Origin: Candidatus Saccharimonadia bacterium
Lineage (GTDB): Bacteria > Patescibacteriota > SICC01
Assembly: GCA_025449535.1 (NCBI GenBank)
Contig: JANWJF010000001.1
Span: 303,344-367,343 of the forward strand
Length of the DNA: 64,000 nt
Direction of reading: 5' to 3'
Shown piece after piece: positions 14,395-55,484 of this stretch. The position numbers and the translations under genes were made by a program. How positions within the stretch are numbered: position 1 is the first letter of the stretch; the number at the start of each line of letters is the position of its first letter. The notes under the pieces were generated by a model. It was not told the origin of the DNA and searched no databases. It was given only the letters and a program-made list of their open reading frames with translations.

Positions 14395-15593
14395 TCCTCC
14401 CTCAGCACCTTAACCGGCTTGATCCGCGTCGCCCGCCAGGCCGGGTAGAGTCCCGCCAGCACCCCAAGTACCACCGCAAAGCCGATCGACATGACGGCCA
14501 GCTCTGGCGTAAGCAGGAACAGCTCGAGGCCTTGCTGCTTGGTGATCGCATTGACGACGGCGGTCAGCGCCGCGCTGCCGAGGAACCCGAGGACGCCGCC
14601 GATCAGTCCGATCAATCCGGTCTCCGTGACCGTCTCCTTGAGGATGTGTCGCGCCCGGGCGCCGACCACCCGCTTCACGCCGATCTCCTTGCGCCGTTCG
14701 GTCACGCTCATGATCATCGTGTTGATCACGGACAGGCTGCCGACCAGCACCGCGATCAGGGCGCTGCCGAGGACGATCAGGTTGAACACCGCCGAGGCGT
14801 CCTCCAGCGTCTTCTTCAGTTGGTCCGGCGGCGTGCCGTCCACCCCGCTGATCGTCGACTCGATCTTCTCGGTCAGCTTCGTCGAGTCCACGCCCTCCTC
14901 CGGGAAGACGTTAATGTTCGTCACCAGTTCCTCGGTGCTGGTCGTGAACGAGGTGATATCCCGGGAGAGCGCCAGGGCGTCCGTCAGGGTGACCATGTAG
15001 AAGGAGTCCGGATCGGCGGTAGTCCGCTTCAGGATGCCGACCACTTCGAACTGCTTGCCGCGCAACGTGACCGTGTCGCCGACGTCGAGCTGCTTCTTCT
15101 GGACGACGTTCGAGCCGATCACCGTCTTGCCGGTGTCGCCGGCCTTCAGGGCCCGGCCTTCGCCGACCTCAAGCTGGAACTTGTCCTTGGCGGCCTCGGC
15201 TGGCGGCGCACCCTGGATCGTCTCCGGCGAGGACGCCACCGAGAACTCCGCGTCCGGTTCGGCCAGCAGCGACAACGTCGGATACGCCCGGTCCACGCCG
15301 TCGATCACCTCGATCCGGTCGGTGATACTGGACGGCAGCTGCGGCCCCACCGCGAACGGCCCGCCGAAGCCACCGCTGTCCTTAGTGACCAGGATCCGGC
15401 TGCTGAAGTAATCGATGCCGACCTGGATCGACTTGCTGAGGCTCTGCGACAACGCGCCCATCGTGGTCAGCGCGAAGATGCCGATCCCGATACCGAAGAT
15501 GGTCAGGGCGGATCGTGCCTTGCGGCGCCAGATGTTCCGGAGCGCTTCTCTCACAAGGGTTATTGTACCAAGTGGCGTATGATTGGTGCGCAT
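14391..15593 (-). CDS. ABC transporter permease, MacB/FtsX family, with a large periplasmic domain.
   Basis: N-terminal TM helix, a roughly 230-aa extracytoplasmic domain, then the C-terminal FtsX 3-TM bundle ending YPAWRATRIKPVKVLREE. An alternative GTG start lies at 15554. Confidence 0.8.
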   Translation of the reverse strand: MRTNHTPLGTITLVREALRNIWRRKARSALTIFGIGIGIFALTTMGALSQSLSKSIQVGIDYFSSRILVTKDSGGFGGPFAVGPQLPSSITDRIEVIDGVDRAYPTLSLLAEPDAEFSVASSPETIQGAPPAEAAKDKFQLEVGEGRALKAGDTGKTVIGSNVVQKKQLDVGDTVTLRGKQFEVVGILKRTTADPDSFYMVTLTDALALSRDITSFTTSTEELVTNINVFPEEGVDSTKLTEKIESTISGVDGTPPDQLKKTLEDASAVFNLIVLGSALIAVLVGSLSVINTMIMSVTERRKEIGVKRVVGARARHILKETVTETGLIGLIGGVLGFLGSAALTAVVNAITKQQGLELFLLTPELAVMSIGFAVVLGVLAGLYPAWRATRIKPVKVLREE

Positions 15594-16074
15594 GAATGGT
15601 CAAACTGTCGAGATGGCGAACGTTCCAGATAGGACCCGACTGACCTTAGACGTTGTCCGTCAATTAGAAATCATCGCCCTCGCCGAGGCCCTGGTGAATG
15701 CGCGGAGGATCGAGGACGAAGAGTCCCATGATTATTTCATTGAGCAGATTGCCAGGAGCGCGGCCAGTTCCGGTGAATACGAAGTCGCACGGTCCATCGC
15801 CCGGGAAGCCAAAGAATCACAGGTGACCGCATCGCTTGAAGCAAGCTTCGCGCGACAGGAGACCGATAGCGCGACGGAGGAAAATGACGAGGTGTTCGTA
15901 CCGGAACCGACGGATCCGGAACGGGATACCAATCGTTGGTTGGAAATCGCGACGCTGTTCGGAAGTCCTCGCGAAGAAGATGGCACCGTGGCGGCCATCG
16001 CCGACCTGATTCCAACAGATGACATGACCGGCTTGGAGCTATTCCAGACGGTGCTTGAGGCGGAAACGGCATAA
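15589..16074 (+). CDS. Acidic hypothetical protein (about 160 aa).
   Basis: ORF with high GC3, divergent from the ABC operon. No recognisable domain. Confidence 0.4.
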   Translation, partial: RMNGQTVEMANVPDRTRLTLDVVRQLEIIALAEALVNARRIEDEESHDYFIEQIARSAASSGEYEVARSIAREAKESQVTASLEASFARQETDSATEENDEVFVPEPTDPERDTNRWLEIATLFGSPREEDGTVAAIADLIPTDDMTGLELFQTVLEAETA

Positions 16075-16093
16075 GAAGAGCGAGAGGCGCTTT

Positions 16094-16741
16094 TTACTCC
16101 ATTAGACCAAGGGCCGTAGCATCCCGCAGGACCCGGTTCCGGACATTGCTGTCGCCGGACTTCTGAGCCCGACTTAGACATCGTTCCCGGATCGCGGAAT
16201 GCTTGGACCGCAAACCTTCCCGCAGGATCCGGCCGATCCGTTGCTCGCTGTCAAACGTCCGGGCGATATTCAATGCGAGGTTGGCTACTCCCTCGTTCTC
16301 GTTCCGGATACCGGCGCCCACCACCATACTTTGGTTGACGTCCCGCTTAATGTCGTCCACAGCGACCAGGGCCGCATGGGCGACGTACGTATCCGGGGAG
16401 CCGGCGGCGACCATCAAACCATCGCTGCGGTCATTCTCGCCTTCCACCTTGAGCAGGTGTCCGATCGCTTCCCGTCGGAGATCGGGATCTTCCGATGTCC
16501 GGATGACGTGAGTGAACACGTTCGCCCGGTGCTTGTCCAGCTCGAAGAACCGCGCCAGCTGCATACCCTCGCGCGTCGCGTCGCCGCCCTGCTCCACCAA
16601 CTGCCGCGCCATCGGCAGCAGGACCTTGCCCTCCTGCTCGGCACTCCACTTCCCGCCGTCCACGATGTCCTTAAAGAGTAATCGTTCTGCGTATACGAAT
16701 GCCTCGGTGCGAAGCGGGTGGTCGCCTAGTGGTTCGCTCAT
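16094..16741 (-). CDS. HEAT/PBS-lyase-like repeat protein.
   Basis: Repeated alpha-helical pairs of about 30 residues with conserved R/A/G positions, typical of HEAT-like repeats. Confidence 0.55.
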   Translation of the reverse strand: MSEPLGDHPLRTEAFVYAERLLFKDIVDGGKWSAEQEGKVLLPMARQLVEQGGDATREGMQLARFFELDKHRANVFTHVIRTSEDPDLRREAIGHLLKVEGENDRSDGLMVAAGSPDTYVAHAALVAVDDIKRDVNQSMVVGAGIRNENEGVANLALNIARTFDSEQRIGRILREGLRSKHSAIRERCLSRAQKSGDSNVRNRVLRDATALGLME

Positions 16742-16800
16742 AGCGCTGTATTGTCTCGGTCAAACCAGTGAGTGTCAACGAAAAAGAGCGAGGGGCGCGG

Positions 16801-17019
16801 TTACAGACCCTTAAACAGTTCCTCGGCCCTAATTCCCAATCCCTTACATATCGAGTAGACCGTGTTAAGGCTTGGCTTTGCGTTTCCCTGCTCTATGGCC
16901 GCGACATGTTTTTCCGCGAGTCCCGCCAAGTCCGCCAGACGAGCTTGTGTATACCCCTTCTCTTTGCGGTATGTAGCAATTCTTAGCGCAACCTCACTAA
17001 AGAAGTTCCCTCGGTCCAT
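16801..17019 (-). CDS. XRE-family (Cro/CI-type) HTH transcriptional regulator, 72 aa. Low-GC gene with atypical codons.
   Basis: Canonical HTH_3 (YRKEKGYTQARLADLAGLAEKHVAAIEQGNAKPSLNTVYSICKGLGIRAEELF). AGA/AGG/ATA codons are rare elsewhere in the window. Confidence 0.8.
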   Translation of the reverse strand: MDRGNFFSEVALRIATYRKEKGYTQARLADLAGLAEKHVAAIEQGNAKPSLNTVYSICKGLGIRAEELFKGL

Positions 17020-17054
17020 GCCCTAAGGGTAGGCAGATAGGTTGCCAGCTATGC

Positions 17055-17066
17055 TGTAATATTACA
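17055..17066. promoter_or_regulatory. Perfect 12-bp palindrome TGTAATATTACA in the divergent promoter region between the XRE gene and the small secreted-protein gene. Candidate operator.
   Basis: Seen directly. It sits between divergent start codons (17019 and 17108), the usual position of an XRE/Cro operator. Confidence 0.45.
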
Positions 17067-17107
17067 TACTTCCATCAAGAACTATTAATCAACTATAAGG
17101 AGGCTAC

Positions 17108-17485
17108 ATGGGCGAGGAAGTTAAAAAGAATTGGTTCGCGCGCCATAAAGTGCTGACTGGTATCGTCGGGGTAATACTGTTGTTGGGAATCGGTAGCGCA
17201 ATGAGTTCTACTGGGTCGGTAAGTACCGATACAGCAGATCAAAATCAGGGAGCAACACAAGAAGCACCAGTGAAGAAAGAGTCAAAAAAGCTCAGCTCTC
17301 AGGAAATTTATGAAAAAGTTCAGCCAGGCATGACCAAGGAAGAGGTTATCAAAATCGCCGGTCACGATCCGGACAACTGCATTAACTCTGACAGTGGTAC
17401 GTTTGGCTCCTCGGAAACCTGCTCATATGGGACCTTGTCTCTAATTTTCATGAATGGCGAATTAGAGAGTAAGACAAAGCTCTAA
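17108..17485 (+). CDS. Small membrane-anchored/secreted protein with a BamE/SmpA-OmlA-like (DUF3862-type) C-terminal domain. Low GC (about 43%).
   Basis: Strong SD AAGGAGG 5 nt upstream of the ATG. N-terminal TM/signal (VLTGIVGVILLLGIGSA). Motif GMTKEEVIKIAGHDPDNC. Confidence 0.7.
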   Translation: MGEEVKKNWFARHKVLTGIVGVILLLGIGSAMSSTGSVSTDTADQNQGATQEAPVKKESKKLSSQEIYEKVQPGMTKEEVIKIAGHDPDNCINSDSGTFGSSETCSYGTLSLIFMNGELESKTKL

Positions 17486-17497
17486 CTCTCTTTTAAG

Positions 17498-17547
17498 CAA
17501 GCTGCTAATATACAAAGGTGCAGCTTGGTAAGGTTGGTTTTTGTTTT
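17498..17547 (+). terminator. Stem-loop (CAAGCTGC ... GCAGCTTG) followed by a T-rich run between the convergent 17108..17485 (+) and 17546..18733 (-) genes.
   Basis: 8-bp stem with a 14-nt loop, then GTAAGGTTGGTTTTTGTTTT. Weaker than the other terminators here. Confidence 0.35.
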
Positions 17548-18733
17548 ACGACTCCGGCGTCGCGGTCGGGCTCGGGGACGGGGTCGGCGACGGGGTCGCG
17601 TTCTCGCCAGGGATCGGTGCGAACGGATCGCGGCGGCTGGTGGTGGCGGGCTTCAGCGGCGCACCGTACCGGTCGCGTGAAAGGATGCTCCGCCGTTCGT
17701 CGGCACTGAGGTCGATCGCCGGCGGGTTGTAGCCGGCGCCTTCCACGTCCGCCTGGGCCTTCTGGTTGAAGTACCAGAGCGTCCCGTAGGTCGACGTGAC
17801 GACGAGGACGGTCACGCCGGTCACCATCAGCGAGACCACGTGGCGCGAGGCGAACATCCGCGGAGTCAGCCGATTGTACTGCTTGAAGAAGTACAGCACC
17901 GCCCCCGGGATGAACAGGAACGTGACGACCAGCCGCCACTGGGTCTGTTCGACGGCCGTCGGATAGTCGCGGCGATAGCTGTCACGTAGCATCCGGACCC
18001 AGAAGGCCGTCGCGGCGAACGCCAGCACGGCCAGTGCGGCCACGACCGTCAGCTTCAGCGGAGAGAACGAGAGCACCATATCCCAGGCCTGCGCCGGCAG
18101 GCCGGCCAACGACCCGAGGTCCATGCCGCCCGCCTGTCGCAGGCCGAAGTGTTCTCCGGATACCACGGTGGCGCCGGCGACCAGCAGAACGCCTGCTCCC
18201 AGCAACGCCAGAAGTTCCCGATGCGCCTTATGGTCCGGGGTCATCGTGATCGAATCAAGCGCCTGCCGCTTCGCCCGCCTGGCGACGCGTTTGCGAACCG
18301 GCGTGGCAGCCCAGAGCGCGATCCGGCCGAGGAAGGACCAGGCGCCGAGCGCCCAGTAGGCAACGAGGGCCTCGACGGCCCGTCCGGACCGACCAGGTGT
18401 GCAGAAGACCGTGCCAGCCACCGAAGCGACCTCGGAGGCGATCTGCTTCAGTAGACCTTCTCCTGCCCGCGCGGTGCGCCGGGCAGGCTCGGCGACGGCG
18501 CGTTCCGCCGCGACCGCCTTGCGCGCGACGTCTCGCTCCACGGATGCGACCGCCCGGGTCGCCTTCCGTTCGTCCCGCCGGATCTGTCGAACTACGCGCG
18601 CGAACGCGCGCTCGGCGGCTTCGACGAACCCGACGACGCCGGCGTCCGCCTTGGCGACCAGCGCCTCCACGGAACGGTCGAACCGACGGAGTGTCCGTTT
18701 GGATGCCCTGCCGATCTGTGCGAACGGTCTCAT
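17546..18733 (-). CDS. Polytopic membrane protein (395 aa) immediately downstream of pilO. It has N-terminal amphipathic Arg/Ala repeats and a C-terminal Pro/Thr/Ser tail.
   Basis: Start is 2 nt after the pilO stop, so it is probably co-transcribed. Several predicted TM helices. No recognisable domain. Confidence 0.5.
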   Translation of the reverse strand: MRPFAQIGRASKRTLRRFDRSVEALVAKADAGVVGFVEAAERAFARVVRQIRRDERKATRAVASVERDVARKAVAAERAVAEPARRTARAGEGLLKQIASEVASVAGTVFCTPGRSGRAVEALVAYWALGAWSFLGRIALWAATPVRKRVARRAKRQALDSITMTPDHKAHRELLALLGAGVLLVAGATVVSGEHFGLRQAGGMDLGSLAGLPAQAWDMVLSFSPLKLTVVAALAVLAFAATAFWVRMLRDSYRRDYPTAVEQTQWRLVVTFLFIPGAVLYFFKQYNRLTPRMFASRHVVSLMVTGVTVLVVTSTYGTLWYFNQKAQADVEGAGYNPPAIDLSADERRSILSRDRYGAPLKPATTSRRDPFAPIPGENATPSPTPSPSPTATPES

Positions 18734-18734
18734 G

Positions 18735-19325
18735 TCATTTCCCCAAATACAGCGACTGCGCGGTGATGGTCGCCTTCACTTCTCCTGACGAATCCTCCTG
18801 GACGAACTCCAGCGCCGTGACCCGGGTGAAACGATTCATGGTCTCGAGCCGGTTCACGAAGTCCAGGACGTTAGCGTAACTGCCGACGATGTCGATGCTG
18901 ACCGGAAAGGCCGGGAATCCGCCGACGTTCAGCTTGGTCTGCGCTTGGCCGGGGTTCCCGCCTTCCTGCTCGCCGCTGGTATCCACGGTAACGAGGTCCA
19001 CCCTGGTGAGCTGGGCCAGCGCCTCGAGCTCGGTTTGGTACCCGGCGATGTCCTCATGCTTCGGGACGCTCTGAAGTACCGGCGCGTAGACGGCCTCCGT
19101 CGCCGGGAGCGTCTTCTTCACCTCACGCAGGGTGTCGGTCTTCTGCCGGGCGGCGGCGATGTCCGCCTTGGCCGCGGTAATCTGGTCGGCGTGTTCCGCA
19201 AGCAAGCCCATGACCGGCCGCAGGACGAAGAAGCCGATCAGCGCGAGCACAAGGACATTCCCCGCGATCAGGTAGTAGAACCGCTGTTCGGGCTTGATCC
19301 GGAAACCGCTCAGCGCGACCTTCAT
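18735..19325 (-). CDS. pilO: Type IV pilus assembly protein PilO.
   Basis: N-terminal TM, coiled coil and C-terminal ferredoxin-like region with the PilO-typical pattern. ATGA overlap with pilN. Confidence 0.7.
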   Translation of the reverse strand: MKVALSGFRIKPEQRFYYLIAGNVLVLALIGFFVLRPVMGLLAEHADQITAAKADIAAARQKTDTLREVKKTLPATEAVYAPVLQSVPKHEDIAGYQTELEALAQLTRVDLVTVDTSGEQEGGNPGQAQTKLNVGGFPAFPVSIDIVGSYANVLDFVNRLETMNRFTRVTALEFVQEDSSGEVKATITAQSLYLGK

Positions 19326-19915
19326 GACTGCGACCCTTCCAGTTCCTTGGTGTTCACCTTGATCCCGACCGTATACCGGATGACTTTGCCTTCACGGGTC
19401 GTGTTCAGGATCTGTGCCTCCTTGATGAACGGCGACTGGGCCAGTGCCAATTGGAACTGGCCGAGCGCCCGGCGGCTCTCGGTCACGCCGGTAATCTCAC
19501 TGGGATCGCCGTTCCCAGGCTGCGCGGCCTGCGCACCCGTCTGTTGTCCTTGGAACTTGACCGTCTTGATCGAGACGCCGTCGGGCGTCAGGCTCCGGAG
19601 AGCGGAGACGAGCGCCGCCCAACGGGTCGTCTCGCCTTCGGCTTTCTTGAGCTCTCCCAGCTGGAGCGCGAGCTGGTCGGCGTCCTTCTCCACGTCGAGA
19701 TATTCCGCCGCCTGGGCCTCCGCGAGCTGCTGCTCCGCCTGAAGGCTGGTCAGGTTGGCCTTGTAGACCTGGTCGAAGATCAGGAGCAGTCCGGCCATCA
19801 CCAACGCCCCGGTCACGGTCGCGATACCCGCGACGAGCGTGTAATAGTTGAGCAGGTCCGTCTTCCGGCGGCGTTGCTCCTTGTGCGGAAGCAGGTTTAG
19901 CGTGTGTGAATACAT
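19322..19915 (-). CDS. pilN: Type IV pilus assembly protein PilN.
   Basis: NLLP motif right after the start (MYSHTLNLLPHKEQRRRK), one TM helix, coiled coil. Start trimmed to Met21 of the ORF-track model (TTG at 19975). Confidence 0.7.
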   Translation of the reverse strand: MYSHTLNLLPHKEQRRRKTDLLNYYTLVAGIATVTGALVMAGLLLIFDQVYKANLTSLQAEQQLAEAQAAEYLDVEKDADQLALQLGELKKAEGETTRWAALVSALRSLTPDGVSIKTVKFQGQQTGAQAAQPGNGDPSEITGVTESRRALGQFQLALAQSPFIKEAQILNTTREGKVIRYTVGIKVNTKELEGSQS

Positions 19916-20012
19916 GCGTGTGTGTTTACGGGTGGTTGCTGCAAAATTAGACAACCATAACATTATCGGGCCCAAATGTCAATGCTCTCGCGTGCGGTAC
20001 AATGGGTCCAAT

Positions 20013-20756
20013 ATGTCCGGACACAGTAAATGGAGCACCATTAAGCGAAAAAAAGGTGCAGCCGACGCGAAGCGCGGCGCGGCCTTCACTCGCTTGGCAA
20101 ACCTGCTTTCCGTCGCGGCGCGCGAAGGCGGCGGCGACCCGGAGATGAACGTCCAGCTCCGCATGGCGATCGACCAGGCCCGGGCCGAGAACATGCCGAA
20201 CGCCAACATCGACCGCGCGATCAAGCGCGGCACCGGCGAACTGCCCGGCCAGCGACCCCCGGAGTCCGTCACCTACGAGGCCTACGGCCCCGGCGGAGTG
20301 GCGTTGCTCGTGGATTGCCTGACGGACAACAAGAACCGGACCGTCTCCGACGTCCGGTCCGCGGTCACCAAACGGGGCGGTTCGCTCGGGGAGACCGGCT
20401 CGGTCGCGTACCTCTTCGACGAGAAAGGGATTCTCAAGGTGGGCAAGACCGCCGACGAGGACGAACTGATCCTGGCGGCCGCGGATGCCGGCGCGACCGA
20501 CGTGGCGGTCGCCGAAGACGCGTACGAAGTGGAGACGAGCCGGCAGGACCTGGCGAAGGTCCGTGACGCCTTGGCTGCTGGCGGATTCACGGTGCAGGGC
20601 GCGGAGTTGGCGAAGGTGCCGAAGACCGAGGTCCCGGTGACGGACGCCAAGACGGCCGAGGCCGTGGTATCGCTGGTCACCGACCTCGAATCGCTCGACG
20701 ACGTGTCCGACGTCTCGACCAACGCGGACATCGAGCCGGAGCTGGTCGGTGGCTGA
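20013..20756 (+). CDS. yebC: YebC/PmpR family DNA-binding transcriptional regulator.
   Basis: MSGHSKWSTIKRKKGAADAKRG...AIKRGTG is highly conserved in this family. Start trimmed to the ATG at 20013. Confidence 0.85.
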   Translation: MSGHSKWSTIKRKKGAADAKRGAAFTRLANLLSVAAREGGGDPEMNVQLRMAIDQARAENMPNANIDRAIKRGTGELPGQRPPESVTYEAYGPGGVALLVDCLTDNKNRTVSDVRSAVTKRGGSLGETGSVAYLFDEKGILKVGKTADEDELILAAADAGATDVAVAEDAYEVETSRQDLAKVRDALAAGGFTVQGAELAKVPKTEVPVTDAKTAEAVVSLVTDLESLDDVSDVSTNADIEPELVGG

Positions 20757-21243
20757 GTTGCGGGTCGCTGGGTTCGACCCGGGGAACGCCCGGACCGGTT
20801 ATGCCATCCTCGACGTCGACGGCAAGGACCTCCGGCTGGTGGAGGCGGGACTCATCTCCACGGAGAGCGGCGAGACCCCGGAGCGACGCCTCGCCCATAT
20901 CGCCCGCGACGTCGAGGCGGTGCTGAAGAAGCACCGGCCGCACGGGGTCGCGGTGGAGGAGTTGTTCTTCTCGAAGAACGTGACGACCGCGATCCGGGTA
21001 GCGGAAGCGCGCGGCGTCATCCTGGCGGCGGTGGCGGCAGCCGGCCTGTCCGCCGCGGAGTACGGCCCGGGGACCGTCAAGCAGCAGCTGACCGGGTTCG
21101 GCCGGGCTTCCAAGGACCAGGTCTCGACGATGGCCTGCCGTCTGGTGGGACTGCAGGAAGCGCCCAAGCCGGACGACGTCACTGACGCCATCGCCGTGGC
21201 GATCTGCCACGCGTTCCGGTTCAAGCTGGCAGCGACGGGTTAG
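20749..21243 (+). CDS. ruvC: Crossover junction endodeoxyribonuclease RuvC.
   Basis: RVAGFDPG...TGYAI with catalytic acidic residues. GTG start overlaps the yebC stop. Confidence 0.85.
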   Translation: MAELRVAGFDPGNARTGYAILDVDGKDLRLVEAGLISTESGETPERRLAHIARDVEAVLKKHRPHGVAVEELFFSKNVTTAIRVAEARGVILAAVAAAGLSAAEYGPGTVKQQLTGFGRASKDQVSTMACRLVGLQEAPKPDDVTDAIAVAICHAFRFKLAATG

Positions 21244-30043: not shown

Positions 30044-30862
30044 CTACCGTTCCGTCGAAAAACTGATCCCGGAACTGGAGATCGTCGCCGTGACGGTCCC
30101 GTGCCGGTCCGTCCGCACTACCCGACAACCAGACGCGCCCAACCGCCGTACGGTATCCGGATTAGGATGACCATAAGTATTGCCCGTGCCGGAAGAAACG
30201 ATACACCACGTTGGGCTTGTCTCCTTGATGAACTCATCGGTCGAGGACGTCCGACTGCCATGATGCGGCACTTTCAGCACCTCGGTGTCCAACCCGGGGC
30301 GGCCGAGCAAACGACGTTCCTCGGCTTCTTCCGCGTCTCCGGGAAAAAGGAACGAACGACCATGCAGCGTGACTCGGACCACGACCGACGCGTCATTCGC
30401 GTTTTCGTAGCGTCTTCGTTGCCGGGCCGTCGGTTCGAGTATCTCGACCGTGCCGCCATGGATTCCCACCCGCTGTCCCGCCGCCGTAACGAGTCTGCTA
30501 TGTGAGTCGGCCTCCACGACCAAACGTTCGTACGGCCCGTCTCCCGCCTGGTTCACGAGCACCGTCCCGACGTCGTACCGGGCGATGACGTCGACCAAGC
30601 CGCCATAATGATCCAGGTGCGGGTGGCTCAGGATGACCAGCTCTATCCTCCGATCGAACCGCGGCATCGCCTTGCCTAGACCGCGCAATACGGCACGGTC
30701 AGGCCCGCCGTCGATCAAGATTTGCGTTCCGTGGCCGTCATCCACCAAGGCGGCATCCCCCTGTCCGACATCAAAGAAACGGACGGTGGCCCGCGAATCG
30801 GAAGCTGTTGTCCAGATACTGAACGCCAAGACGCCGACGATCGCGATGGCTGCCTTAAACAT
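30044..30862 (-). CDS. comEC: ComEC/Rec2 C-terminal metallo-beta-lactamase domain as a separate ORF with its own N-terminal TM helix.
   Basis: ILSHPHLDHYGGL and KVPHHGSRTSS motifs. Overlaps the upstream ComEC membrane-domain ORF by 8 nt in a different frame. Confidence 0.75.
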   Translation of the reverse strand: MFKAAIAIVGVLAFSIWTTASDSRATVRFFDVGQGDAALVDDGHGTQILIDGGPDRAVLRGLGKAMPRFDRRIELVILSHPHLDHYGGLVDVIARYDVGTVLVNQAGDGPYERLVVEADSHSRLVTAAGQRVGIHGGTVEILEPTARQRRRYENANDASVVVRVTLHGRSFLFPGDAEEAEERRLLGRPGLDTEVLKVPHHGSRTSSTDEFIKETSPTWCIVSSGTGNTYGHPNPDTVRRLGASGCRVVRTDRHGTVTATISSSGISFSTER

Positions 30863-32234
30863 GCGCCCTTGGCCTCAGGCGGACCGCACAAAGCCCGACG
30901 GTCGCGGCGAGCAGCAACGCTATCGGACCTTTCAGGTTCCCGAACGAGACGGATGCTACCGGTAACGCGGCGGTACGTTCTACGCCAGCCAGCAACAGCT
31001 CCGTAGCCGCGGCAACGAGTACCGCTGGCCACGCGGCCACCCCCGGCAAGACGAACGAGATAGCGGTACCGACGAACCCGCCGAGCATGAGCAAAGGGAT
31101 CGCCGGCACCACGAACAGGTTCGTCAAAGGAGCCACCAGGCTGGCCGTCCCGAACGTCAGGGCGATGAGCGGCGCGGTCGTGATGCCGGCGGCCAACGTC
31201 CCAGAGACGATGCCGCTGACGGAGTCCGGAACCCATGGCAGACGGGTTCGGATCCCCGGTTCCAGCCACAGGATGCCGAGCGTGGCCAAGAAGGAAAGGT
31301 CGAATCCCAGGTCGTATCGCAACGCATGGGGTTGCAACAGCAACATTCCCGCGGCCGTCAGGACCGTGGCGAACATCGCCGCTTGGGGACGCCCAAAAAG
31401 CTGACCTAACAACAGGAAACCTCCCATCAGTGCGGCCCGTGCCACCGATGCGGAAGGTCCCACCATGAGCACGAAGCACGCTATCAAGAGCAACGAGATG
31501 ACCAGCGCCGCTGGCTTCCGACCCAGTACCCAGACGATCGCCGTGATGATGATACTGATATTGAACCCGGACAGCGCGAGGATATGCGTGGTGCCGGTCC
31601 GGCGGAACGCCTCGATGTGAGCGTCCGACAACGTCGACCTTTCGCCTATCAGGATACCCAGCATGAAGCCGGCCGTCGGTTCGGGAAAAGTACGCTCGAC
31701 TTGCCGTACCCAGGTCCTGCGGACGGCATAGAACAAACGGCTGACCGTGAGATGGCTTCCTTCGACCCGGACGTCGGCTCGGCGCAGTATCGAATGGATA
31801 CCGTCCTTCGCAAGGTAGCTACGATAGTCGAACTCATCGTCAGCCTTCGGCTCGGTCAGCTGCCCCGTCACCGATACCCGGTCACCCGGTGATAACTCGG
31901 AAAACGGATCAGTCCTGACTAATGTCCTGCCGTTCCGTCCCATCGTCTCGCCGGTCACCACGAACTGCTGGTACTCACCGCGATGCTCGGGGAACGAATC
32001 GACAACGCCGAGTATCGTTCGTTCCGTTCCCGCCACCGTGACAAGGTCGGAGACCGGCGGATCCAAAGGACTTACTAGTATCCGTAGTGCGCCGATCGCC
32101 ACACCCAGGGCCGCCAACGGGCGCCAACCCAGCAGAACCAAGCCCATCCCGACTGCGACGGCGGCCGGCAACCAGGACGCCAAGGCCACGCCGATAATCA
32201 CACCTGATGCCAATAGTAAGGCTGGTTGCTTCAT
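30855..32234 (-). CDS. comEC: ComEC/Rec2 N-terminal part: DUF4131 and the competence membrane channel domain.
   Basis: GFMLGILIGERSTLSDAHIEAFRRTGTTHILALSGFNISII is the conserved competence-domain core. Multiple TM helices. Confidence 0.8.
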   Translation of the reverse strand: MKQPALLLASGVIIGVALASWLPAAVAVGMGLVLLGWRPLAALGVAIGALRILVSPLDPPVSDLVTVAGTERTILGVVDSFPEHRGEYQQFVVTGETMGRNGRTLVRTDPFSELSPGDRVSVTGQLTEPKADDEFDYRSYLAKDGIHSILRRADVRVEGSHLTVSRLFYAVRRTWVRQVERTFPEPTAGFMLGILIGERSTLSDAHIEAFRRTGTTHILALSGFNISIIITAIVWVLGRKPAALVISLLLIACFVLMVGPSASVARAALMGGFLLLGQLFGRPQAAMFATVLTAAGMLLLQPHALRYDLGFDLSFLATLGILWLEPGIRTRLPWVPDSVSGIVSGTLAAGITTAPLIALTFGTASLVAPLTNLFVVPAIPLLMLGGFVGTAISFVLPGVAAWPAVLVAAATELLLAGVERTAALPVASVSFGNLKGPIALLLAATVGLCAVRLRPRAHV

Positions 32235-32363: not shown

Positions 32364-35300
32364 TTACAGCGTACCGACGCTGGCGCCGGTGTAGTAGAAC
32401 TGCAGGATCTGGGCGTAGCTCTGTCCGCTCAAGGCGCGACGGTAGGCTCCCCACTGGCTCATGCCGATGCCGTGGCCGAAGCCCTTCCCGTTGAACACGA
32501 AGTTGTTCCCGCTCTTGCTGACGCTGGTCACCTGCGAGGACGGCAGTCCGAGGCGACTGCGGTGGGTATCCGCGGTCAGGGTGTAGTCGTGGTTACCGCA
32601 GCTGCCGGCCAGGCGGACCGTCCGCATTCGGTCGCCCGGGTGCTTGGAGATGATACCGACGCCGGTCACCGTGCAGCCGAAGCCGTAGTTCGAACGGATC
32701 GTCTCGCGCGAGGTAGTGTCCGGCCAGAGATGGTCGGTGTCACCGACCTGCGAGAAGGAGTCGGCCTTGCCGCGGAGATAGCTGATCGGCGAGCCGCCCC
32801 AGACGTCCTCGTTGTCCGCGGTATGACCGGCCGCGTTCGAGCTGTAGAACGCTTGCACCAGCGAGCCGCTGTACTTGACCACCTTGCCGTTGGTGGCGCC
32901 GACCGCCGTGACGTGGTTCGGCTTGGCGGTCTCGTTGTTGTACCCGTTGTAGACCTGGTCCCGGGTATCATCGTAAAGATCGAAGCTGTCCGCACGTGGA
33001 CTTTGGATCTTCCGAGCCGCGTAGGTCCGGGCCGCCGTCACCTGCGCCTTGATCGCCTCTATCGGCCAGCCGTCCGGGACTTCGCCGAGGCCACGCAGGT
33101 ACTCCTCGAGGTTGACCGAGTTCACCAGGTGAGTGCCGGCGCTGCCGGTACGGATCGCCATCGACCCGCGGAAGTAGTCCTGGCTGGCGTTGTCCGCCAG
33201 GTTCGTCACCACGAACCGGTTGCCCGGCGCCTGCTCGGCCGTGAGGATGCAGCAGGAGTTGACCGTCCCGCTCGGCAGGACCGCCTGGTAGTTCGAACCG
33301 TCCTTGCGCAGGGTGAAGTTCGTGGCCGGGGCGACGGTGCCGCGATTGGCCCCGTTGATGTCACGGATGGTGACGGTGTTCGTGCCCCGCATGGTGGCGC
33401 TGGACTGCGCGGTCAAGGCGACATCGATCGGGTTCTCGATCGTGATCGACCAATGGATGCCGATGTCCTTCATCCAGCCGACGCCGTTCACGACCGGCCG
33501 GAAGTACTCCTTGTACGTACCCGGACCGGGGTTGGCGACAATGTCGAACTCGAACTCACCGATCTCGCCCGGTGCCACGCTGGTCTCGCCGCCGACGTTC
33601 TTGGCGGGATCGGTCACGTTGCTCCCCAGCTTCACCCGGTTGGAACTGAGCCAGCCGGCCGCCGTGCCGCCGTCGGAGAAACCGCTGCCGCGGTCCTGCG
33701 GACGGTCGGTCCCTAGCCGGACCGGCGTATCGCCGTCGGACTGCCAAGTGGTATACCCCATGTTCCGCAAGCGGATGAAGAGGGTATCGGTCTCATCCTG
33801 CGACAGATACCGGTAATGCGAGGCCTTGCTCACGTAGTCGTAGTCGTAGGCACGCGTCGGCACCGTCTGCGTCCAGGACAAGCCCAGGTCGTGCTGCCAG
33901 CCGAAGTTCTCGATGACCGAGCTAAAGTATTCGGTGTACTTTCCGCCCTTGGCCGGTGCTTTCAAATCGAACGACCAACGGGCAGTCTCCCCCGGAGCGA
34001 TCGCGTTGCCCGGCGTCACCGTGCCGTCCTCGACCTTACCGACAAACTTGCCGAGCCGATTACGTGACTGCCAGGTCGCGCTGTCGTACCACGCGCTATT
34101 GTGGTCCATCGGCTTGATGGTCCCGATGTTCATGTCATAAGCCGTGTCGTTGCGCCAGGTGGCGGTGCCGATGTTCTTCACGTCCGCCGTGACCGTGCTC
34201 TTCTCTCCCGGGGTAACAACCGAAGGCGGGTTGGTCTTGTCGACCAGCTGTCCGCGGTAGAACCGGCCCGGCACCGTCGTGGTGATGTACTTCGAATGGT
34301 CTTCGAGCCAGGTGACGCCGTCGATCACCGGCTGGAAGTACTCGCGCAGGGTCGCGGTGGAGGTCCGCGGCGGCGAGGTCATCGTGAAGGCGAACCGGGC
34401 GGTCTCCCCGGACTGGATGGTATCGGTCGTCGTGACACTACCGTTACTCTCGACCCGTCCCGTGAAGCTGGTGACGCGGTTCTTGGACTGCCAAGAAGCG
34501 TTGTAGAACGGCGACTTGTGGTCCTTGGGGTGGCTAGTGCCGAGCCGGATCGCGTCCGCACCGGTGTTCGACCAGGGTTCCAGGCCGACGTTCTTGTAAT
34601 CAACGTAGACCGATCGGTCGGTACCGGAGGTCGCGGAAGCGGACGCCGACTGCCGCACCCACTCCGCGGAGTATTCCTTCACCATGGCTTGCGCCCCGTT
34701 GGCGTCCAGCCGGCCATGACCGTAGAGGTTCGTCCGGGACGCGCCGTTCATCCCGGACACCGTGTCCGCGGAACTCCGCAGGACGGTCCGGACCCGCGAC
34801 CAGGAGATGTCCGGATCCAACGCCCGGAGCAGGCCCGCTACGCCGGCCACGTGCGGCGCGGCCAGGGAGGTACCCGATGCCGAGACGTAGCTGGTGTTCC
34901 CGAGCCCCGCGCCACGAACGCTGGAACCGGGAGCGACCAGGTCCAGCTGCGAGCCGCCGTTCGAGTACCCCGCCCGGGCGTCCGAGGATCCGGTCGCGCC
35001 GACGGAGATCACGCTCGGGTTGATCGCCGGGTAGTTAATCGAGTTCGTGTACCCGTCGTTGCCGGACGCCGCCACGAGGATCGTCCCGTCCGCGATCGCC
35101 TCGGTGATGGCCTGGTCGGTCATCGCTTCGGAAGTGAGTCCGTCCGCACCGAGGCTCATGTTCGCTACGTCCGCACCGACGACTCCCGCGTACCGGACGC
35201 CTTCCGCGACATCCGAGAAGAACCCGTTGCCGGCGGAGTTAAGCACCTTGATCGCGATGATCTTCGCGTTCCAGTCGACGCCGGCAACGCCGAGGCCGTT

Positions 35301-36053
35301 GTCCGTCTCAGCGGCAAAGACGGACGCCGTCAGCGTCCCGTGGCCGTTGTCGTCGGTAGGACCGTTCGCGTCGTTCTTGAACACGCTGAGCACGTGGGTC
35401 CCGTTAACGAAGTCCATGCCGTCGTGATCGTCGATATATCCGTTGCCGTCGTCGTCGAGGTTGTTATCGGGAGTCTCGTCGTCGTTCGTCCACATCTTGG
35501 CGGTAAGGTCCTGGTGCGAGGCGTTCACGCCGGTGTCGATGCTGGCGATGGTCGTCGAGCTCGACCCCACGGTACGGTCCCAGGCGGCCGGCGCCTTGAT
35601 CTTAGGCAGGGCCCACTGGTTCGGGTAATGTGGATCGTCCGGGGTACGGGAAGCGGTGACGACGAAGTCCGGCGTCGCGCTGCGGACACCCGGCAGCGCC
35701 GAGACCCGGTCGTCGGCTTGCTCGACCGGTTCGTCGATGGACAGTAAATACGTATCGGGAATAGTAGTCCCGGTCAGGCGGTCGCCGAACTGCTGCTTCG
35801 CCGCTTCATCCCGCAGACGGACGACCAGCCGACCCTTCGCGGCCTTGGTCCGCTTGCCGTTCTTGAGCGTGACCGTCTCCAGCGGCTGGCCGTGTACTTC
35901 GGTCAACTTGTTGATTGCGTCGCCTGCCTGCCGGACGGACGGTTCCTTCTCGACCGGTGCGTCGGGAGCCTTTCCGAGTACCGTGATGGCCGCTATGCCC
36001 ATTAGCCCGACGACGGCCGCGGTGAATACCTTCTGTAGGACGTTTGTTTTCAT
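32364..36053 (-). CDS. Giant secreted multidomain protein (1229 aa): N-terminal subtilisin-like S8 peptidase, about five repeated beta-sandwich domains, and a C-terminal SpoIID/LytB domain.
   Basis: Signal peptide. S8 catalytic Asp/His/Ser motifs: IDTGV, HGTLTASVFAAE, GTSLAAPHVAGVAGL. Repeated segments of about 100 aa. C-terminal SpoIID motifs LEEYLRGLGEVP...AIKAQVTAARTYA...VYNGYNNE...FYSSNAAGHTADNEDVWGG. Confidence 0.85.
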   Translation of the reverse strand: MKTNVLQKVFTAAVVGLMGIAAITVLGKAPDAPVEKEPSVRQAGDAINKLTEVHGQPLETVTLKNGKRTKAAKGRLVVRLRDEAAKQQFGDRLTGTTIPDTYLLSIDEPVEQADDRVSALPGVRSATPDFVVTASRTPDDPHYPNQWALPKIKAPAAWDRTVGSSSTTIASIDTGVNASHQDLTAKMWTNDDETPDNNLDDDGNGYIDDHDGMDFVNGTHVLSVFKNDANGPTDDNGHGTLTASVFAAETDNGLGVAGVDWNAKIIAIKVLNSAGNGFFSDVAEGVRYAGVVGADVANMSLGADGLTSEAMTDQAITEAIADGTILVAASGNDGYTNSINYPAINPSVISVGATGSSDARAGYSNGGSQLDLVAPGSSVRGAGLGNTSYVSASGTSLAAPHVAGVAGLLRALDPDISWSRVRTVLRSSADTVSGMNGASRTNLYGHGRLDANGAQAMVKEYSAEWVRQSASASATSGTDRSVYVDYKNVGLEPWSNTGADAIRLGTSHPKDHKSPFYNASWQSKNRVTSFTGRVESNGSVTTTDTIQSGETARFAFTMTSPPRTSTATLREYFQPVIDGVTWLEDHSKYITTTVPGRFYRGQLVDKTNPPSVVTPGEKSTVTADVKNIGTATWRNDTAYDMNIGTIKPMDHNSAWYDSATWQSRNRLGKFVGKVEDGTVTPGNAIAPGETARWSFDLKAPAKGGKYTEYFSSVIENFGWQHDLGLSWTQTVPTRAYDYDYVSKASHYRYLSQDETDTLFIRLRNMGYTTWQSDGDTPVRLGTDRPQDRGSGFSDGGTAAGWLSSNRVKLGSNVTDPAKNVGGETSVAPGEIGEFEFDIVANPGPGTYKEYFRPVVNGVGWMKDIGIHWSITIENPIDVALTAQSSATMRGTNTVTIRDINGANRGTVAPATNFTLRKDGSNYQAVLPSGTVNSCCILTAEQAPGNRFVVTNLADNASQDYFRGSMAIRTGSAGTHLVNSVNLEEYLRGLGEVPDGWPIEAIKAQVTAARTYAARKIQSPRADSFDLYDDTRDQVYNGYNNETAKPNHVTAVGATNGKVVKYSGSLVQAFYSSNAAGHTADNEDVWGGSPISYLRGKADSFSQVGDTDHLWPDTTSRETIRSNYGFGCTVTGVGIISKHPGDRMRTVRLAGSCGNHDYTLTADTHRSRLGLPSSQVTSVSKSGNNFVFNGKGFGHGIGMSQWGAYRRALSGQSYAQILQFYYTGASVGTL

Positions 36054-37965: not shown

Positions 37966-38553
37966 CTATTCGACGGGTACCGCGCGCACTACGAACCGCT
38001 TAGAGTCCAACCAGCCCGAGCAGGTGTAGACCGTCAGGACTTCCTTCTTGGTCGGCGCCAGGACGCCCACCTGGTCGGTCGTCACTTCCTTCAGGCTCGT
38101 AATCCGGTACTCGTGCTTCCGACCGCCCTTGGTCGTGAGTACGACACGCTCGTTCCCCTCCAGGCCGAGGAGCGGCCCGAAGACGTCCTTCGTGTTGTGT
38201 CCGTAGACGATGATGTTGCCCTTCTCGTCCGGTTTGGCGGAACCGTTCATGTAAGAGCCGGCGTGCTTGGCGACGGTCCACTCCCCGTTCTCGTACTTCT
38301 GCGGTTCGAGCTTCTCGTCCACCACGCCAGAAATCCGCAGTCGGACCGGTCGGGTCGAATCAGTCGATTCCGCGGCTACCGGCGCTGCCACTCTAGGCTG
38401 GAGCGCTCGGTCATAATAATAGTTGTTAGCGCCGCTATAGAGCAGTAGCGCCAAACCGACGACGATCAGCACTATCGGCCAGTGCCGCAGGAAGAACTTC
38501 GGAGCTGAATCCAAAGAGCGTCCTTTGCGTCGCGAGCGGGAACGCTTCGCCAT
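37966..38553 (-). CDS. Sortase (transpeptidase), class E-like.
   Basis: N-terminal TM anchor, catalytic His (IIVYGHN), TLxTC-type active-site Cys (LTVYTCSG) and a conserved Arg. Start trimmed to the ATG at 38553. Confidence 0.8.
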   Translation of the reverse strand: MAKRSRSRRKGRSLDSAPKFFLRHWPIVLIVVGLALLLYSGANNYYYDRALQPRVAAPVAAESTDSTRPVRLRISGVVDEKLEPQKYENGEWTVAKHAGSYMNGSAKPDEKGNIIVYGHNTKDVFGPLLGLEGNERVVLTTKGGRKHEYRITSLKEVTTDQVGVLAPTKKEVLTVYTCSGWLDSKRFVVRAVPVE

Positions 38554-38557
38554 GGAC

Positions 38558-39397
38558 TCAGTTCCGGAGTCGCCGTCGCGTGGCTGCGTACGCGCCGATG
38601 GAAACCAGCGTGGTGCCCAGACCGGCCAGCGAACCAAGTCCCGTGTCCGCAAAGCTGAGCGGGACAATGCTGCCGCCCGTGGCCGGGTCTGACGGATCAC
38701 TCACGCTTCCTTGGGAGTTCACGCCCGGATCATCGGTCGGATCGGGACTCCCTTGGGGATCCACGGTCGGGTCGGGATCAGGACTTCCCTGCGGGTCTGC
38801 GGTGGGATCCGGAGTCGGGGTGGGATCAGGACTTCCCTGCGGGTCTGCGGTCGGGTCAGGGGTAGGAGTGTCCGAGGGGGTTTCGGTGGGGGTCGGGGTC
38901 GGTTCCGGAGTCGGGGTACTTTCCACCTCTACCGTAGGAGTCGGGGTGGGGGTTTCGGTTGGAGTAGGAGTGTCGCTCGGTGTAGGCGTGGCAGAGGGAG
39001 TCGGGGTCGCAGAGGGACTCGGCGTGGTATAGATCAGGCAGTAGTGGATGTGGCTCAGCGCAGGAACCTGATTGCCACCATTCAGGGGAGTCACGCCAAT
39101 ACCAACCAAATAGTCGTACGTAGCTCCATTACCCCCTCCGTACAACTCGACCGTGCCGCTGATTCCGTCCTCCACGTTCCAAACCACTGTACCGGAGCCG
39201 GCCGGGGTCTCAGTGAACGTTATCGTAACCCCGTTGATTACTATCGAACCGTCGCCGCTCTCGGCCACCTTCGCGCAGCCGGGCCGGGTCTCGTTGTGGG
39301 CAAACGCGATCGTTCCAAACATTGTCGCCCCTACAAACACGGCGGCTGCCAGCAAGGCAGGCACCAACCGCTTTCGATATATCGCTCGTTCGCTCAT
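38558..39397 (-). CDS. Sortase substrate: secreted protein with a Thr/Pro-rich stalk and a C-terminal sorting signal (LSFADTG, then a hydrophobic helix, then RRRLRN).
   Basis: Signal peptide. About 90 aa of (TP)n repeats. The LAxTG-like FADTG motif precedes a TM segment and a cationic tail. Confidence 0.75.
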   Translation of the reverse strand: MSERAIYRKRLVPALLAAAVFVGATMFGTIAFAHNETRPGCAKVAESGDGSIVINGVTITFTETPAGSGTVVWNVEDGISGTVELYGGGNGATYDYLVGIGVTPLNGGNQVPALSHIHYCLIYTTPSPSATPTPSATPTPSDTPTPTETPTPTPTVEVESTPTPEPTPTPTETPSDTPTPDPTADPQGSPDPTPTPDPTADPQGSPDPDPTVDPQGSPDPTDDPGVNSQGSVSDPSDPATGGSIVPLSFADTGLGSLAGLGTTLVSIGAYAATRRRLRN

Positions 39398-44044: not shown

Positions 44045-45187
44045 TCAGAGCCCGAGCTTGTCCAGGAAGCCCTTCTTCGGCTTGGGTCCTTCCTTCTTCC
44101 CGAGCTCCTCGACCAACCGCTTTTCCTCGGCCGTCAGCTTCTTCGGCACGGAGACGTGGACCGTCACCTTGAGGTCGCCCGCGCCGGCCGCGTTCAGCTT
44201 GGGCATGCCCGCCCCCTTGATCGTGAACGTCTCGCCGCTCTGGGTGCCGGCCGATATCTTGAGCTCCGTCTTGCCGGTGGCCGTCGGTACCTCGACCCGG
44301 TCGCCGAGCACGGCCTGCGGGAAGCTGATCGGGACGGTCACGCCGAGCGTAAAACCGTTACGCTCGAACATCTTCGACGGCTTCACGTGGACGATCACGT
44401 AGGCGTGGCCGGACGGCGCGCCGCGCTGACCCGCCTCGCCGGCGCCCTGGATCCGGATCGTCTGACCCTCGTCGATGCCGGGCGGGATCTCCACGGTCAG
44501 CGTCTCCTTCTTCTGCTTCCGGCCTTCGCCGCCGCAATCCGGGCACGGCTTCTCCGGCCGCTTGCCCTCGCCATGGCACTCCGGGCACTCCGTGACCTGT
44601 GCCATCGTGCCCAGCACCGTCCGCCGGGTGACCTGGACCTGCCCCTGGCCGCCACAGCGTTCGCAGGTGACGATCTTCGCTCCCTTCGCCGCGCCGGTGC
44701 CGCCGCAGGTCTCGCAGGTCGTCCGCCGGTCGATCGTGAGCTCCTTGGTCGTGCCTTTGACGGCCTCGTCGAAGCCGATGGTGACCGTCATCTGGAGGTC
44801 GGAGCCGCGGGACGGTCCGCGCTGCCGCGTGCCGCCGCCGAACCCGCCGGTGAACATCTGCTCGAAAATGTCGCCGAGGTTGCCGAAGTCGAATCCCTGG
44901 GCATTGAAGTCGTTCGGATTGAATCCGCCGAATCCCGCGCCGCCCGGCCCACCGCCGGCGCCCTGGGCACCGGTTTTGCCGAACTGGTCGTAGGCCGACC
45001 GCTTCTGCTGGTCGGACAGCACCTCGTAGGCTTCCTGTACCTCTTTGAACTTGCGTTCGTCTTCCTTGGTACCGCCCTTGTCCGGGTGGTACTTGTGGGC
45101 GAGCTTCCGGTACGCCTTTTTGATGTCGGCGACGGAGGCGTCCTTGCCGACGCCCAAGATATCGTAATAATCCCTGCTGGTAGGCAT
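44045..45187 (-). CDS. dnaJ: Chaperone DnaJ (J domain, G/F region, four CxxCxGxG zinc-finger repeats, C-terminal domains).
   Basis: DYYDILGV...HPDK, Gly/Phe-rich linker, CETCGGTG / CERCGGQG / CPECHGEG / CPDCGGEG. Confidence 0.95.
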
Positions 45188-45226
45188 AGCGTTCCCAGTC
45201 TACGGAAAAACCGCCGCGCAGTCAGG

Positions 45227-46264
45227 TCAGAACGGCAAGCCGAGGATCTTCGGGTCCACTACCATCCCGAACAGCATCCCGACCACCAGCGCCGCCAGGA
45301 CCATCAGCACGATGATGATGTTCTTCACGGACGCCGAGGCGTAGCTGGCGTAGGCCGCCAGGTTGGGCGGCTTGATTGAGCCGGCGATCATACCGATCAC
45401 GAATCCAGTGAACGCGCTCCAGCCGAAGGCGGCAGCGGGTTGGCCGGAAGCGGTCAGGATCACGCCGAGTCCGGCGCCGACGAACGCGCCCACTGCGCCG
45501 ACCTCGGCGCCCCGGACCAGCGTGTAGAACAGGTTGAACCGGCCGGCCCCGGAGCGGAGCTTGTCGACCGTGTCGCCGTCGGAACCGGCCACCGCGCCGG
45601 CCAGCACGCCGAGCAGGATTAGCGGCAGGGTGAACGCCTTGGTATCCGCGGCGGCGTCGATCGATCCGCCGAGCAGCCCGCCGTAGTACGCCAGGCCGAG
45701 GCTCATCAGGATCGTCCGCGCCAAGGTGTAGCTCCGTCCCAGCCAGCCCGTCCCCAGGAACGACTCCACCTTGAAGTTGTAGTCCGCTCCCCACAGCAAG
45801 CCGACCAAGAGGCCCGGGATCGCGCCCTGCACCGCTTCCGACACAAGCAGCTTGGATTCGGTCAGGAATCCGAGCGCCGCCGCTAGCAGACCGCCGGCCA
45901 GCGCCGCGATCAGCCCGAACATGAACGTCCGGAGCAACGCCGCGCGGAGCAACGCCCGGCGGTACGGGCTTTCCGCCGCCGCCGCCTCGGCCTGGGTCGC
46001 CCCGGACGGAGCGCCGCCGGCCGGGGCGGGTCCGCCATGCCGGACACCGGTATCGGAGAGCGACTGGTCGTAGTCGGCACGCTTCAGTGAATCCGACAGC
46101 GTGCCATACGCCTCGTTGATCTTCTTGAACCGCTCCTCAGCCTCCGGTCCTTTGTTGACGTCGGGATGGTACTCTCGCGCCAACGTCCGGTACGCCTTCT
46201 TGATGTCGTCTTCCGTGGCTGTCCGTGAGACGCCGAGAATGCCGTAATAGGTTTCCTTCGCCAT
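45227..46264 (-). CDS. J-domain protein fused to a Gly/Ala/Leu-rich polytopic membrane domain. A DnaJ-like membrane co-chaperone.
   Basis: N-terminal J domain ([34 protein letters not shown]) followed by about 250 aa of hydrophobic helices. Confidence 0.8.
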
Positions 46265-51534: not shown

Positions 51535-51535
51535 A

Positions 51536-55416: not shown

Positions 55417-55484
55417 AGCTATCAGTATACTGGTTCCCCGCTCCGCGACGGTCCCAAACTCGCTTATACTTGGGACGAAAACAA

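Follow-up and report, generated by a model that had tools for sequence, protein, structure and literature searches.

How type IVa pili (T4aP) are assembled and anchored in monoderm bacteria, which have no PilP, PilQ or other outer-membrane parts, is an open question (PMC6916266). In a stretch of 64,000 nucleotides (nt) from a Candidatus Saccharimonadia bacterium (hereafter, the window), pilN and pilO are directly followed by a gene, here called gene X, for a membrane protein of 395 amino acids (aa). The most likely reading, for which in our judgement the chances are about evenly balanced, makes X an inner-membrane accessory, specific to this lineage, of the T4aP assembly subcomplex (PilM-PilN-PilO) in a small clade of ultrasmall, monoderm Patescibacteria; this estimate jointly covers the transcription of pilN, pilO and X as one unit. 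The link of X to PilN and PilO rests on gene context. An original prediction, made from the sequence of the window, had suggested that X is a lineage-specific component of type IV pili (T4P) and a functional analogue of PilP or PilQ. The first suggestion is plausible, as X lay downstream of pilO in 15 of 15 related loci, although the link is contextual and the surrounding block is syntenic. The second was not demonstrated: neither a PilP or secretin domain nor a lipobox or beta domain was detected in X.

The pilN-pilO-X unit and its conservation

Three consecutive minus-strand open reading frames (ORFs), in the order pilN, pilO and gene X, form a compact unit in the window, whose G+C content is ~62%:

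19954-19982, minus strand: promoter-like site upstream of pilN (TTGACA, 17-nt spacer, TG-extended TATGGT), by consensus match
19322-19915, minus strand: pilN, 197 aa (Pfam PF05137; NCBI HEY8108777.1, 'PilN domain-containing protein')
18735-19325, minus strand: pilO, 196 aa (Pfam PF04350; NCBI HEY8108776.1, 'type 4a pilus biogenesis protein PilO')
17546-18733, minus strand: gene X, 395 aa, clade-specific membrane protein (NCBI HEY8108775.1, hypothetical protein)
20013-20756, plus strand: yebC (TACO1/YebC family, by Pfam), divergent from pilN
20749-21243, after yebC: ruvC (by Pfam)

Neither pilN nor pilO departs from its family, and public records already name both accordingly. The PilN domain scored 33.7 bits against a Pfam gathering cut-off of 22.8, and the PilO domain 39.2 bits against 22; by hydropathy, PilN has one transmembrane (TM) helix (~residues 25-50) and PilO a single N-terminal one (~residues 15-44). 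The short, cytoplasmic N-terminus of PilN reads MYSHTLNLLP and includes the LNLLP motif, in which N7, L8 and P10 were invariant across the seven genomes aligned. In diderm-type systems, the N-terminal [IL]NLLP of PilN is the PilM-binding peptide (PMC11525922, PMC6916266).

The genes are tightly joined. The pilN stop and the pilO start share ATGA, which gives the 4-nt overlap reported in the original prediction, and the pilO stop and the ATG of X are separated by one base (TGA-C-ATG), which corresponds to the '2 nt downstream' of that prediction. Shine-Dalgarno-like sequences, GGAAGGG and GGGGA, occur at the junctions of the unit, with GGGGA upstream of X. The promoter-like site, located within the 97-nt divergent intergenic region common to pilN and yebC, matches the consensus at 10 of 12 positions and is a candidate by consensus alone, with four such sites in the region against 0.7 expected. 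Together, this site, the ATGA overlap, the 1-nt spacer and the Shine-Dalgarno-like sequences speak for the reading of X as an accessory made with PilN and PilO. Rfam and repeat scans of 15-22 kb returned no match.

Two gene starts required attention. The original prediction had placed the start of pilN at TTG 19975. Judging from sequence comparison, the start is almost certainly the ATG at 19915: the same Met was found in seven orthologues, and both the NCBI and JGI calls give 197 aa. TTG 19975 was rejected in view of these orthologue starts and calls and of the promoter-like site at 19982-19954. For X, the start at 18733 is backed by the N-termini of homologues, the 1-nt spacer after pilO and the NCBI PGAP call (395 aa); the JGI call is 21 codons shorter (374 aa; P0001). 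The G+C content of X by codon position (0.69/0.54/0.84) is typical for genes in the window, and this pattern together with the conservation of X rules out a spurious ORF.

We surveyed one genome per GTDB species (185,579 species) and found X in seven of them, labelled 'Patescibacteria group bacterium', 'bacterium' or 'uncultured Candidatus Saccharibacteria bacterium'; three related metagenome-assembled genomes carry the submitters' label 'Candidatus Saccharibacteria'. From a word-index search, these species genomes and JGI metagenomes, we assembled 15 related loci, which were reached via X, independently via PilO and, in one case, via a metagenome scan with a PilO profile; all PilO relatives reached belonged to the same clade. 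The order was yebC (divergent), then pilN-pilO-X, in 15 of the 15 loci, and none of them had this pilO without X, or X elsewhere. The original prediction had named a lack of X at the pilNO loci of relatives as grounds for rejecting it, and these loci show no such lack. The scan with the PilO profile, aimed at pilO loci lacking X, yielded one locus, which has X. The adjacency of pilO and X held down to 44-46% identity in PilO and 33-35% in X. Furthermore, pilN and pilO overlapped by 4 nt in every related locus, and in the 11 genomes analysed in detail (11/11) the pilO/X junction took one of two forms, an overlap of 4 nt or a spacer of 1 nt. Gene content around the unit varied (M23 peptidase, a convergent gene, glycosyltransferases, an insertion sequence), whereas pilN-pilO-X never did.

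As also predicted, pilM did not adjoin pilN; in the window, as in each of the related loci, the gene upstream is the divergent yebC. No PilM, PilB, PilC, PilT or PilD domain was found in the 57 predicted ORFs that were Pfam-scanned across the window.

Architecture and relatives of the X protein

X is an undescribed family, annotated 'hypothetical protein'; the whole protein matched no family in Pfam (E ≤0.1) or NCBIfam. We divided it as follows:

18239-18733, minus strand: residues 1-165, Arg/Ala-rich amphipathic helix region, from periodicity and composition
18152-18217, minus strand: residues 173-194, first TM helix (Kyte-Doolittle 2.3)
17873-18076, minus strand: residues 220-287, PLDc_N-like two-helix membrane hairpin, from hhalign against PF13396 proteins
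17771-17842, minus strand: residues 298-321, fourth hydrophobic helix, ending in an invariant STYGxLxYFN belt
17603-17731, minus strand: residues 335-377, conserved tail, containing a short helix (predicted, 344-351) and an invariant motif
17549-17602, minus strand: residues 378-395, Pro/Ser/Thr-rich C-terminal end TPSPTPSPSPTATPES, found in all homologues

A 15-sequence alignment showed 44 invariant columns, nearly all of them located in the tail and the membrane core, which marks X as a real protein under constraint. The original prediction had described a polytopic membrane protein with an amphipathic Arg/Ala region at its N-terminus and a Pro/Thr/Ser tail at its C-terminus, and each of these features was recovered; it had missed the PLDc_N-like hairpin and the 11-residue repeat described below.

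The first ~165 residues contain 36 Ala and 27 Arg and are predicted to be helical, with a mean net charge of ~+20 over 30 family members. Their hydrophobicity has a period of 3.66 residues (power 209, vs 9 in shuffles) and their autocorrelation peaks at lags of 11 and 22, so that the region is a hendecad (11-residue) amphipathic repeat. It is also the least conserved part of X: its sequence and length vary among homologues, and P0016, a homologue of 215 aa, is without it. The N-terminus itself, MRPFAQIGRASKRTLRR, is a basic helix without a hydrophobic signal sequence, and neither a lipoprotein signal peptide nor a lipobox cysteine was found in it. We predict that the region is cytoplasmic.

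The membrane core contains four hydrophobic helices (~residues 173-194, 226-248, 266-283 and 298-321, by Kyte-Doolittle). A TPDHxSHxEL motif, with T165, D167 and E173 conserved, precedes helix 1. The hairpin includes SP..., FWxRMLRDSYRRxYPTxxExTxW and FIPGAvlYFfkxYN. Helix 3, the second helix of the hairpin, comprises 16-18 hydrophobic residues with a conserved Pro-Gly in its middle, and the loop before helix 4 (loop 3) has on average ~3.3 basic and no acidic residues in 30 family members. The tail has a net charge of ~0 in the same 30 members and an invariant motif, YGxPL...RxDPFAPxPG; searched against Pfam (E ≤10) and PDB sequences, it gave matches at chance level only.

Structure prediction, which the original prediction had proposed as a check, was informative in part. 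The AlphaFold 2 (AF2) model of full-length X was unusable, with a predicted local distance difference test score (pLDDT) of 54, and that of the core (residues 162-395) reached a pLDDT of 68, in which the hairpin alone was confident (82-95). Both models were all-helical. Foldseek comparison of the core model with the PDB gave nothing below E = 3.

Relatives of X are few. Searching 5.8 billion proteins by word index gave 15 clusters, to which a profile search added one; among 1.84 billion cluster representatives, an exhaustive HMMER profile search recovered 19 full-length members at E ≤1e-82, followed by a gap, with the next matches only at E 1e-16. These weaker matches were of two kinds. The first comprises long hendecad-repeat proteins that cover the N-terminal region only (E 1e-16 to 1e-6); those scanned were of Baculo_PEP_C, DUF7217 or apolipophorin-like type. 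They share with X the periodicity of 3.67 residues seen in apolipophorin-III/apolipoprotein-like and Baculo_PEP_C-type proteins, but the matches are limited to the repeat region and the polar face of X is unusually Arg-rich. On sequence grounds, they probably reflect a common periodic composition and not common descent. As a separate observation, this set (P0048-P0177) holds hundreds of proteins of 800-3300 aa built of 11-residue amphipathic repeats.

The second kind consists of proteins of 76-106 aa that match profile positions 240-306. Five of these (P0096, P0124, P0135, P0143 and P0178; E 1e-8 to 1e-6) were scanned and all five passed the PF13396 (PLDc_N) model. In hhalign, residues 220-287 of X aligned with these five PF13396 proteins at a probability of 98.5% (E 3e-15), and the two share the signature FW..M..D...(10-12)...W.....PGA..YF. 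The Pfam PLDc_N model itself (cut-off 23.3 bits) was not listed for X at E ≤0.1. From these alignments, we take helices 2-3 of X to be a remote homologue of the PLDc_N membrane hairpin. According to Pfam, PF13396 covers a hairpin in small membrane proteins of unknown role and the N-termini of enzymes of the phospholipase D (PLD)/cardiolipin synthase type. X differs in that its hairpin lies between two further TM helices and is accompanied by a 165-aa hendecad domain and a conserved tail, with no PLD catalytic domain. We know of no PF13396 member that acts with pili, and a literature search for PLDc_N and PF13396 returned nothing relevant, only matches to plasmid names.

A candidate pilus accessory and its alternatives

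Known pilus proteins offer three comparisons with X. In diderms, PilP is needed for PilN-PilO stability and its C-terminal domain binds the secretin, whereas monoderms are without PilP (PMC6916266). The N-terminal part of PilP is a lipid-anchored extended segment, and a short helix within it packs against the coiled coil of PilN-PilO (PMC11525922). X resembles PilP (PF04351) in that its gene comes right after pilN-pilO, in the PilP slot, in that the protein is membrane-anchored, and perhaps in having an extended segment with a short predicted helix. In addition, Myxococcus PilP (3jc8) has KRDPFRSPI ahead of its beta domain, where X has RRDPFAPIP (PilP segment before the beta domain, YVYNPVGKRDPFRSPI; X segment, SRRDPFAPIPGE); as far as the sequences tell, we regard this RDPF likeness, the one sequence link between X and PilP, as a short motif resemblance and not as homology. 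The differences are substantial: X has no lipobox, no beta-sandwich (HR) domain and no Pfam match to PilP even at E ≤10; it is TM-anchored, with a large cytoplasmic domain (395 aa vs ~175 aa); and a monoderm has no secretin partner to offer.

Monoderm Firmicutes provide the second comparison. They have enlarged PilO proteins, for example the 56.6-kDa PilO/PilH of Streptococcus sanguinis, and the role of such extra mass on PilN/PilO, although unknown, is speculated to be in crossing the wall or anchoring to it (PMC6916266). Here the extra mass would be carried by X as a separate, tightly coupled gene, whereas PilO is of canonical size (196 aa); we take this as an analogy only. The third is Nanosynbacter lyticus TM7x, which likewise has T4aP-type PilN/PilO, an episymbiont-type genome of monoderm Patescibacteria and scattered pilin loci (PMC11623550). 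In TM7x, pilM/N/O occur with pilB/pilC (loci 1 and 2), and with pilT as well in locus one (PMC11623550), whereas in the present locus X accompanies a pilNO pair that is separate from pilM. Published Saccharibacteria pilus loci contain PilM/N/O with PilB/C/T, and nothing like X is mentioned (PMC11623550). The present arrangement is a variant of the pilMNO(P) theme, with pilM detached and a clade-specific membrane protein in the PilP slot.

Several identities for X could be dismissed. X is not PilP (no PilP domain at E ≤0.1 for the whole protein or E ≤10 for the tail, no lipobox, all-helical models), nor PilQ (no secretin or N0/N1 domain in Pfam, and a helical protein with four hydrophobic helices), nor PilC (no T2SSF (PF00482) match in Pfam or NCBIfam). 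No domain supports PilM or a transporter either; for the latter, which the original prediction had considered as a counter-explanation, homology was absent from Pfam, NCBIfam, PDB sequences, PDB folds and the exhaustive profile search.

If X is an accessory of the assembly subcomplex, it would be made together with PilN and PilO, and its helical core (the PLDc_N-like hairpin plus helix 4 with the STYGxLxYFN belt) would sit beside their TM helices in the cytoplasmic membrane. The basic hendecad region would lie flat on the cytoplasmic face of this membrane, on anionic lipids, where it may anchor or position the complex. Under the positive-inside rule, the loop that precedes helix 4 would face the cytoplasm, and this would leave the C-terminal tail outside. 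There, the short helix and RxDPFAPxPG of the tail might dock on the external coiled-coil or ferredoxin-like domains of PilN/PilO, and the Pro/Ser-rich end might reach into the wall. X would in this way supply the PilN/PilO-stabilising half of the job of PilP, without the secretin-binding half, which is unneeded in a monoderm.

The external tail is the weakest step of this mechanism. Were all four helices to span the membrane, the tail would end up in the cytoplasm, where PilP-like docking fails, and loop 3, which is the most basic one (3.3 Lys/Arg, no Asp/Glu), would face outwards. If helix 3 does not cross fully, all loops would obey the positive-inside rule and the tail would be outside, which would also suit its Pro/Ser-rich end. 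The AF2 core model, on the other hand, draws helix 3 as one continuous helix.

Besides the topology, which bears on the PilP-like docking step, several points weigh against X as a pilus accessory. No sequence or fold similarity of X to a known pilus component was found in Pfam, NCBIfam, PDB sequences or by Foldseek against the PDB, and the short RDPF motif also occurs in an unrelated GalT-like protein of the window. The 15-20 kb neighbourhood is syntenic throughout the clade (glycosyltransferases, galT, STAS, ruvC, yebC, pilNO-X, macB/ABC, murD), so the adjacency of pilO and X is not independent evidence. Overlaps of 4-8 nt are common between other neighbours as well, such as yebC/ruvC, STAS/galT and GT4/GT4. 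X was not traced outside the clade, and its confinement therefore precludes a test of phyletic co-occurrence. Finally, pilM, pilB, pilC and pilT were not found within the 64 kb of the window, out of a contig of ~0.81 Mb, and because they were not located, that the orphan pilNO pair serves a pilus is something we infer.

Much the same observations could be accommodated if X had nothing to do with the pilus, that is, if it were an envelope, lipid-associated or regulatory membrane protein of the PLDc_N kind that came to lie after pilO through tight gene packing and inheritance as a block. We consider this possible, on the unlikely side. PLDc_N is the only homology detectable in X, amphipathic regions of the basic hendecad type bind membrane surfaces generically, and both the clade-wide synteny and the frequent overlaps between neighbouring genes in this genome fit such a view. 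It accounts less well for the fact that, down to 33-35% identity, the 15 loci include neither this pilO without X nor X elsewhere, and that neighbouring genes change while pilN-pilO-X does not, with the junction remaining at -4 or +1 nt. At the other end stands a stronger version of the pilus reading, in which X is an unrecognised, TM-anchored structural T4P component built around the PLDc_N hairpin. Its external tail would stabilise PilN/PilO in place of PilP, and its basic hendecad domain would tie the machine to the cytoplasmic membrane surface; this version, too, we consider possible, on the unlikely side.

The detachment of pilNO from pilM, pilB, pilC, pilT and the pilins suggests another alternative, in which the orphan PilN-PilO pair and X form a module re-used outside the pilus, with the true pilMNO elsewhere in the genome. 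There are precedents: in cultivated Saccharibacteria, pilM-N-O stay together and may be present as two sets (PMC11623550), and PilM/N/O homologues are reported to form a cage in the Helicobacter flagellar motor (PMC10823254; PMC11525922). PilN, however, retains its PilM-binding N-terminal motif, and no second pilNO or alternative machine was seen in the 64 kb examined of ~0.81 Mb. Scattered T4P genes are, moreover, common in small genomes, and we judge re-use to be improbable. The absence of pilM next to pilN (0/15 loci) could also mean that the lineage has lost pilM and that X replaces it, with the basic cytoplasmic region of ~165 aa as a cytoplasmic layer. This we consider very improbable. 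The region in question is the least conserved part of X, variable in length and missing from the 215-aa P0016; it consists of a simple amphipathic repeat in place of an actin-like ATPase fold; and pilM is reported to be widely conserved in Patescibacteria (PMC11623550). Because PilN keeps the [IL]NLLP motif, a PilM-containing machine is expected, and we argue that PilM exists elsewhere and that X is no PilM replacement.

Surrounding genes and implications

Beyond X, the window departs from its relatives. In these, X is followed by a convergent gene for a secreted/TM protein of 170-235 aa and then by a Peptidase_M23 gene (430-664 aa), before macB/ftsX. The window has neither the M23 peptidase nor the convergent secreted-protein gene, and contains instead:

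17108-17485, plus strand: 125-aa lipoprotein-like ORF
16801-17019, minus strand: XRE-type helix-turn-helix gene
16094-16741, minus strand: 215-aa HEAT-like ORF
15583-16074, plus strand: 163-aa acidic ORF

The G+C content falls to 0.567 at 16-18 kb, and 15583-17500 looks like a local replacement or insertion.

The nearest pilin genes are ~35.5 kb from pilN, in agreement with the distance of 36 kb given by the original prediction:

55470-56954, plus strand: three consecutive prepilin-type genes, the first GspH-like (Pfam N_methyl and GspH; motif scan)

They have G[FYL]TL[ILV]E motifs at their N-termini. A 605-aa ORF without a Pfam match follows them (region 55470-58771, plus strand), and it could be a large tip or minor pilin without a canonical prepilin motif. 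At 30044-32234 on the minus strand, ~11 kb from pilNO, a comEC gene (DUF4131 and Competence domains, 459 aa) immediately precedes a separate gene of the metallo-beta-lactamase fold (272 aa); one relative (L014) has ComEC in the same neighbourhood. This would fit DNA uptake linked to the pilus in this group.

Two further gene groups were observed. A 1229-aa protein with Peptidase_S8, Ig-like and SpoIID domains (32364-36053, minus strand) and a nearby sortase gene (37966-38700, minus strand) are envelope-remodelling genes in a very small genome. Two adjacent DnaJ-domain genes at 44045-46264 (minus strand) encode a full DnaJ of 380 aa and a J-domain-only protein of 345 aa; they are separated by four genes without a Pfam match from hrcA-grpE-dnaK at 49528-53181 (minus strand).

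The gene names pilN and pilO were already public, and the X family occurs in only a few uncultured species, so that its reach is narrower than that of a general component. T4aP are nevertheless central to the episymbiotic lifestyle of Patescibacteria (PMC11623550). Locked to pilN-pilO, X would be a candidate for the stabilising or anchoring part that a monoderm without PilP is missing, and it would offer a concrete partner to test. If X is a T4P component, the PLDc_N domain family would for the first time be placed in a functional context.

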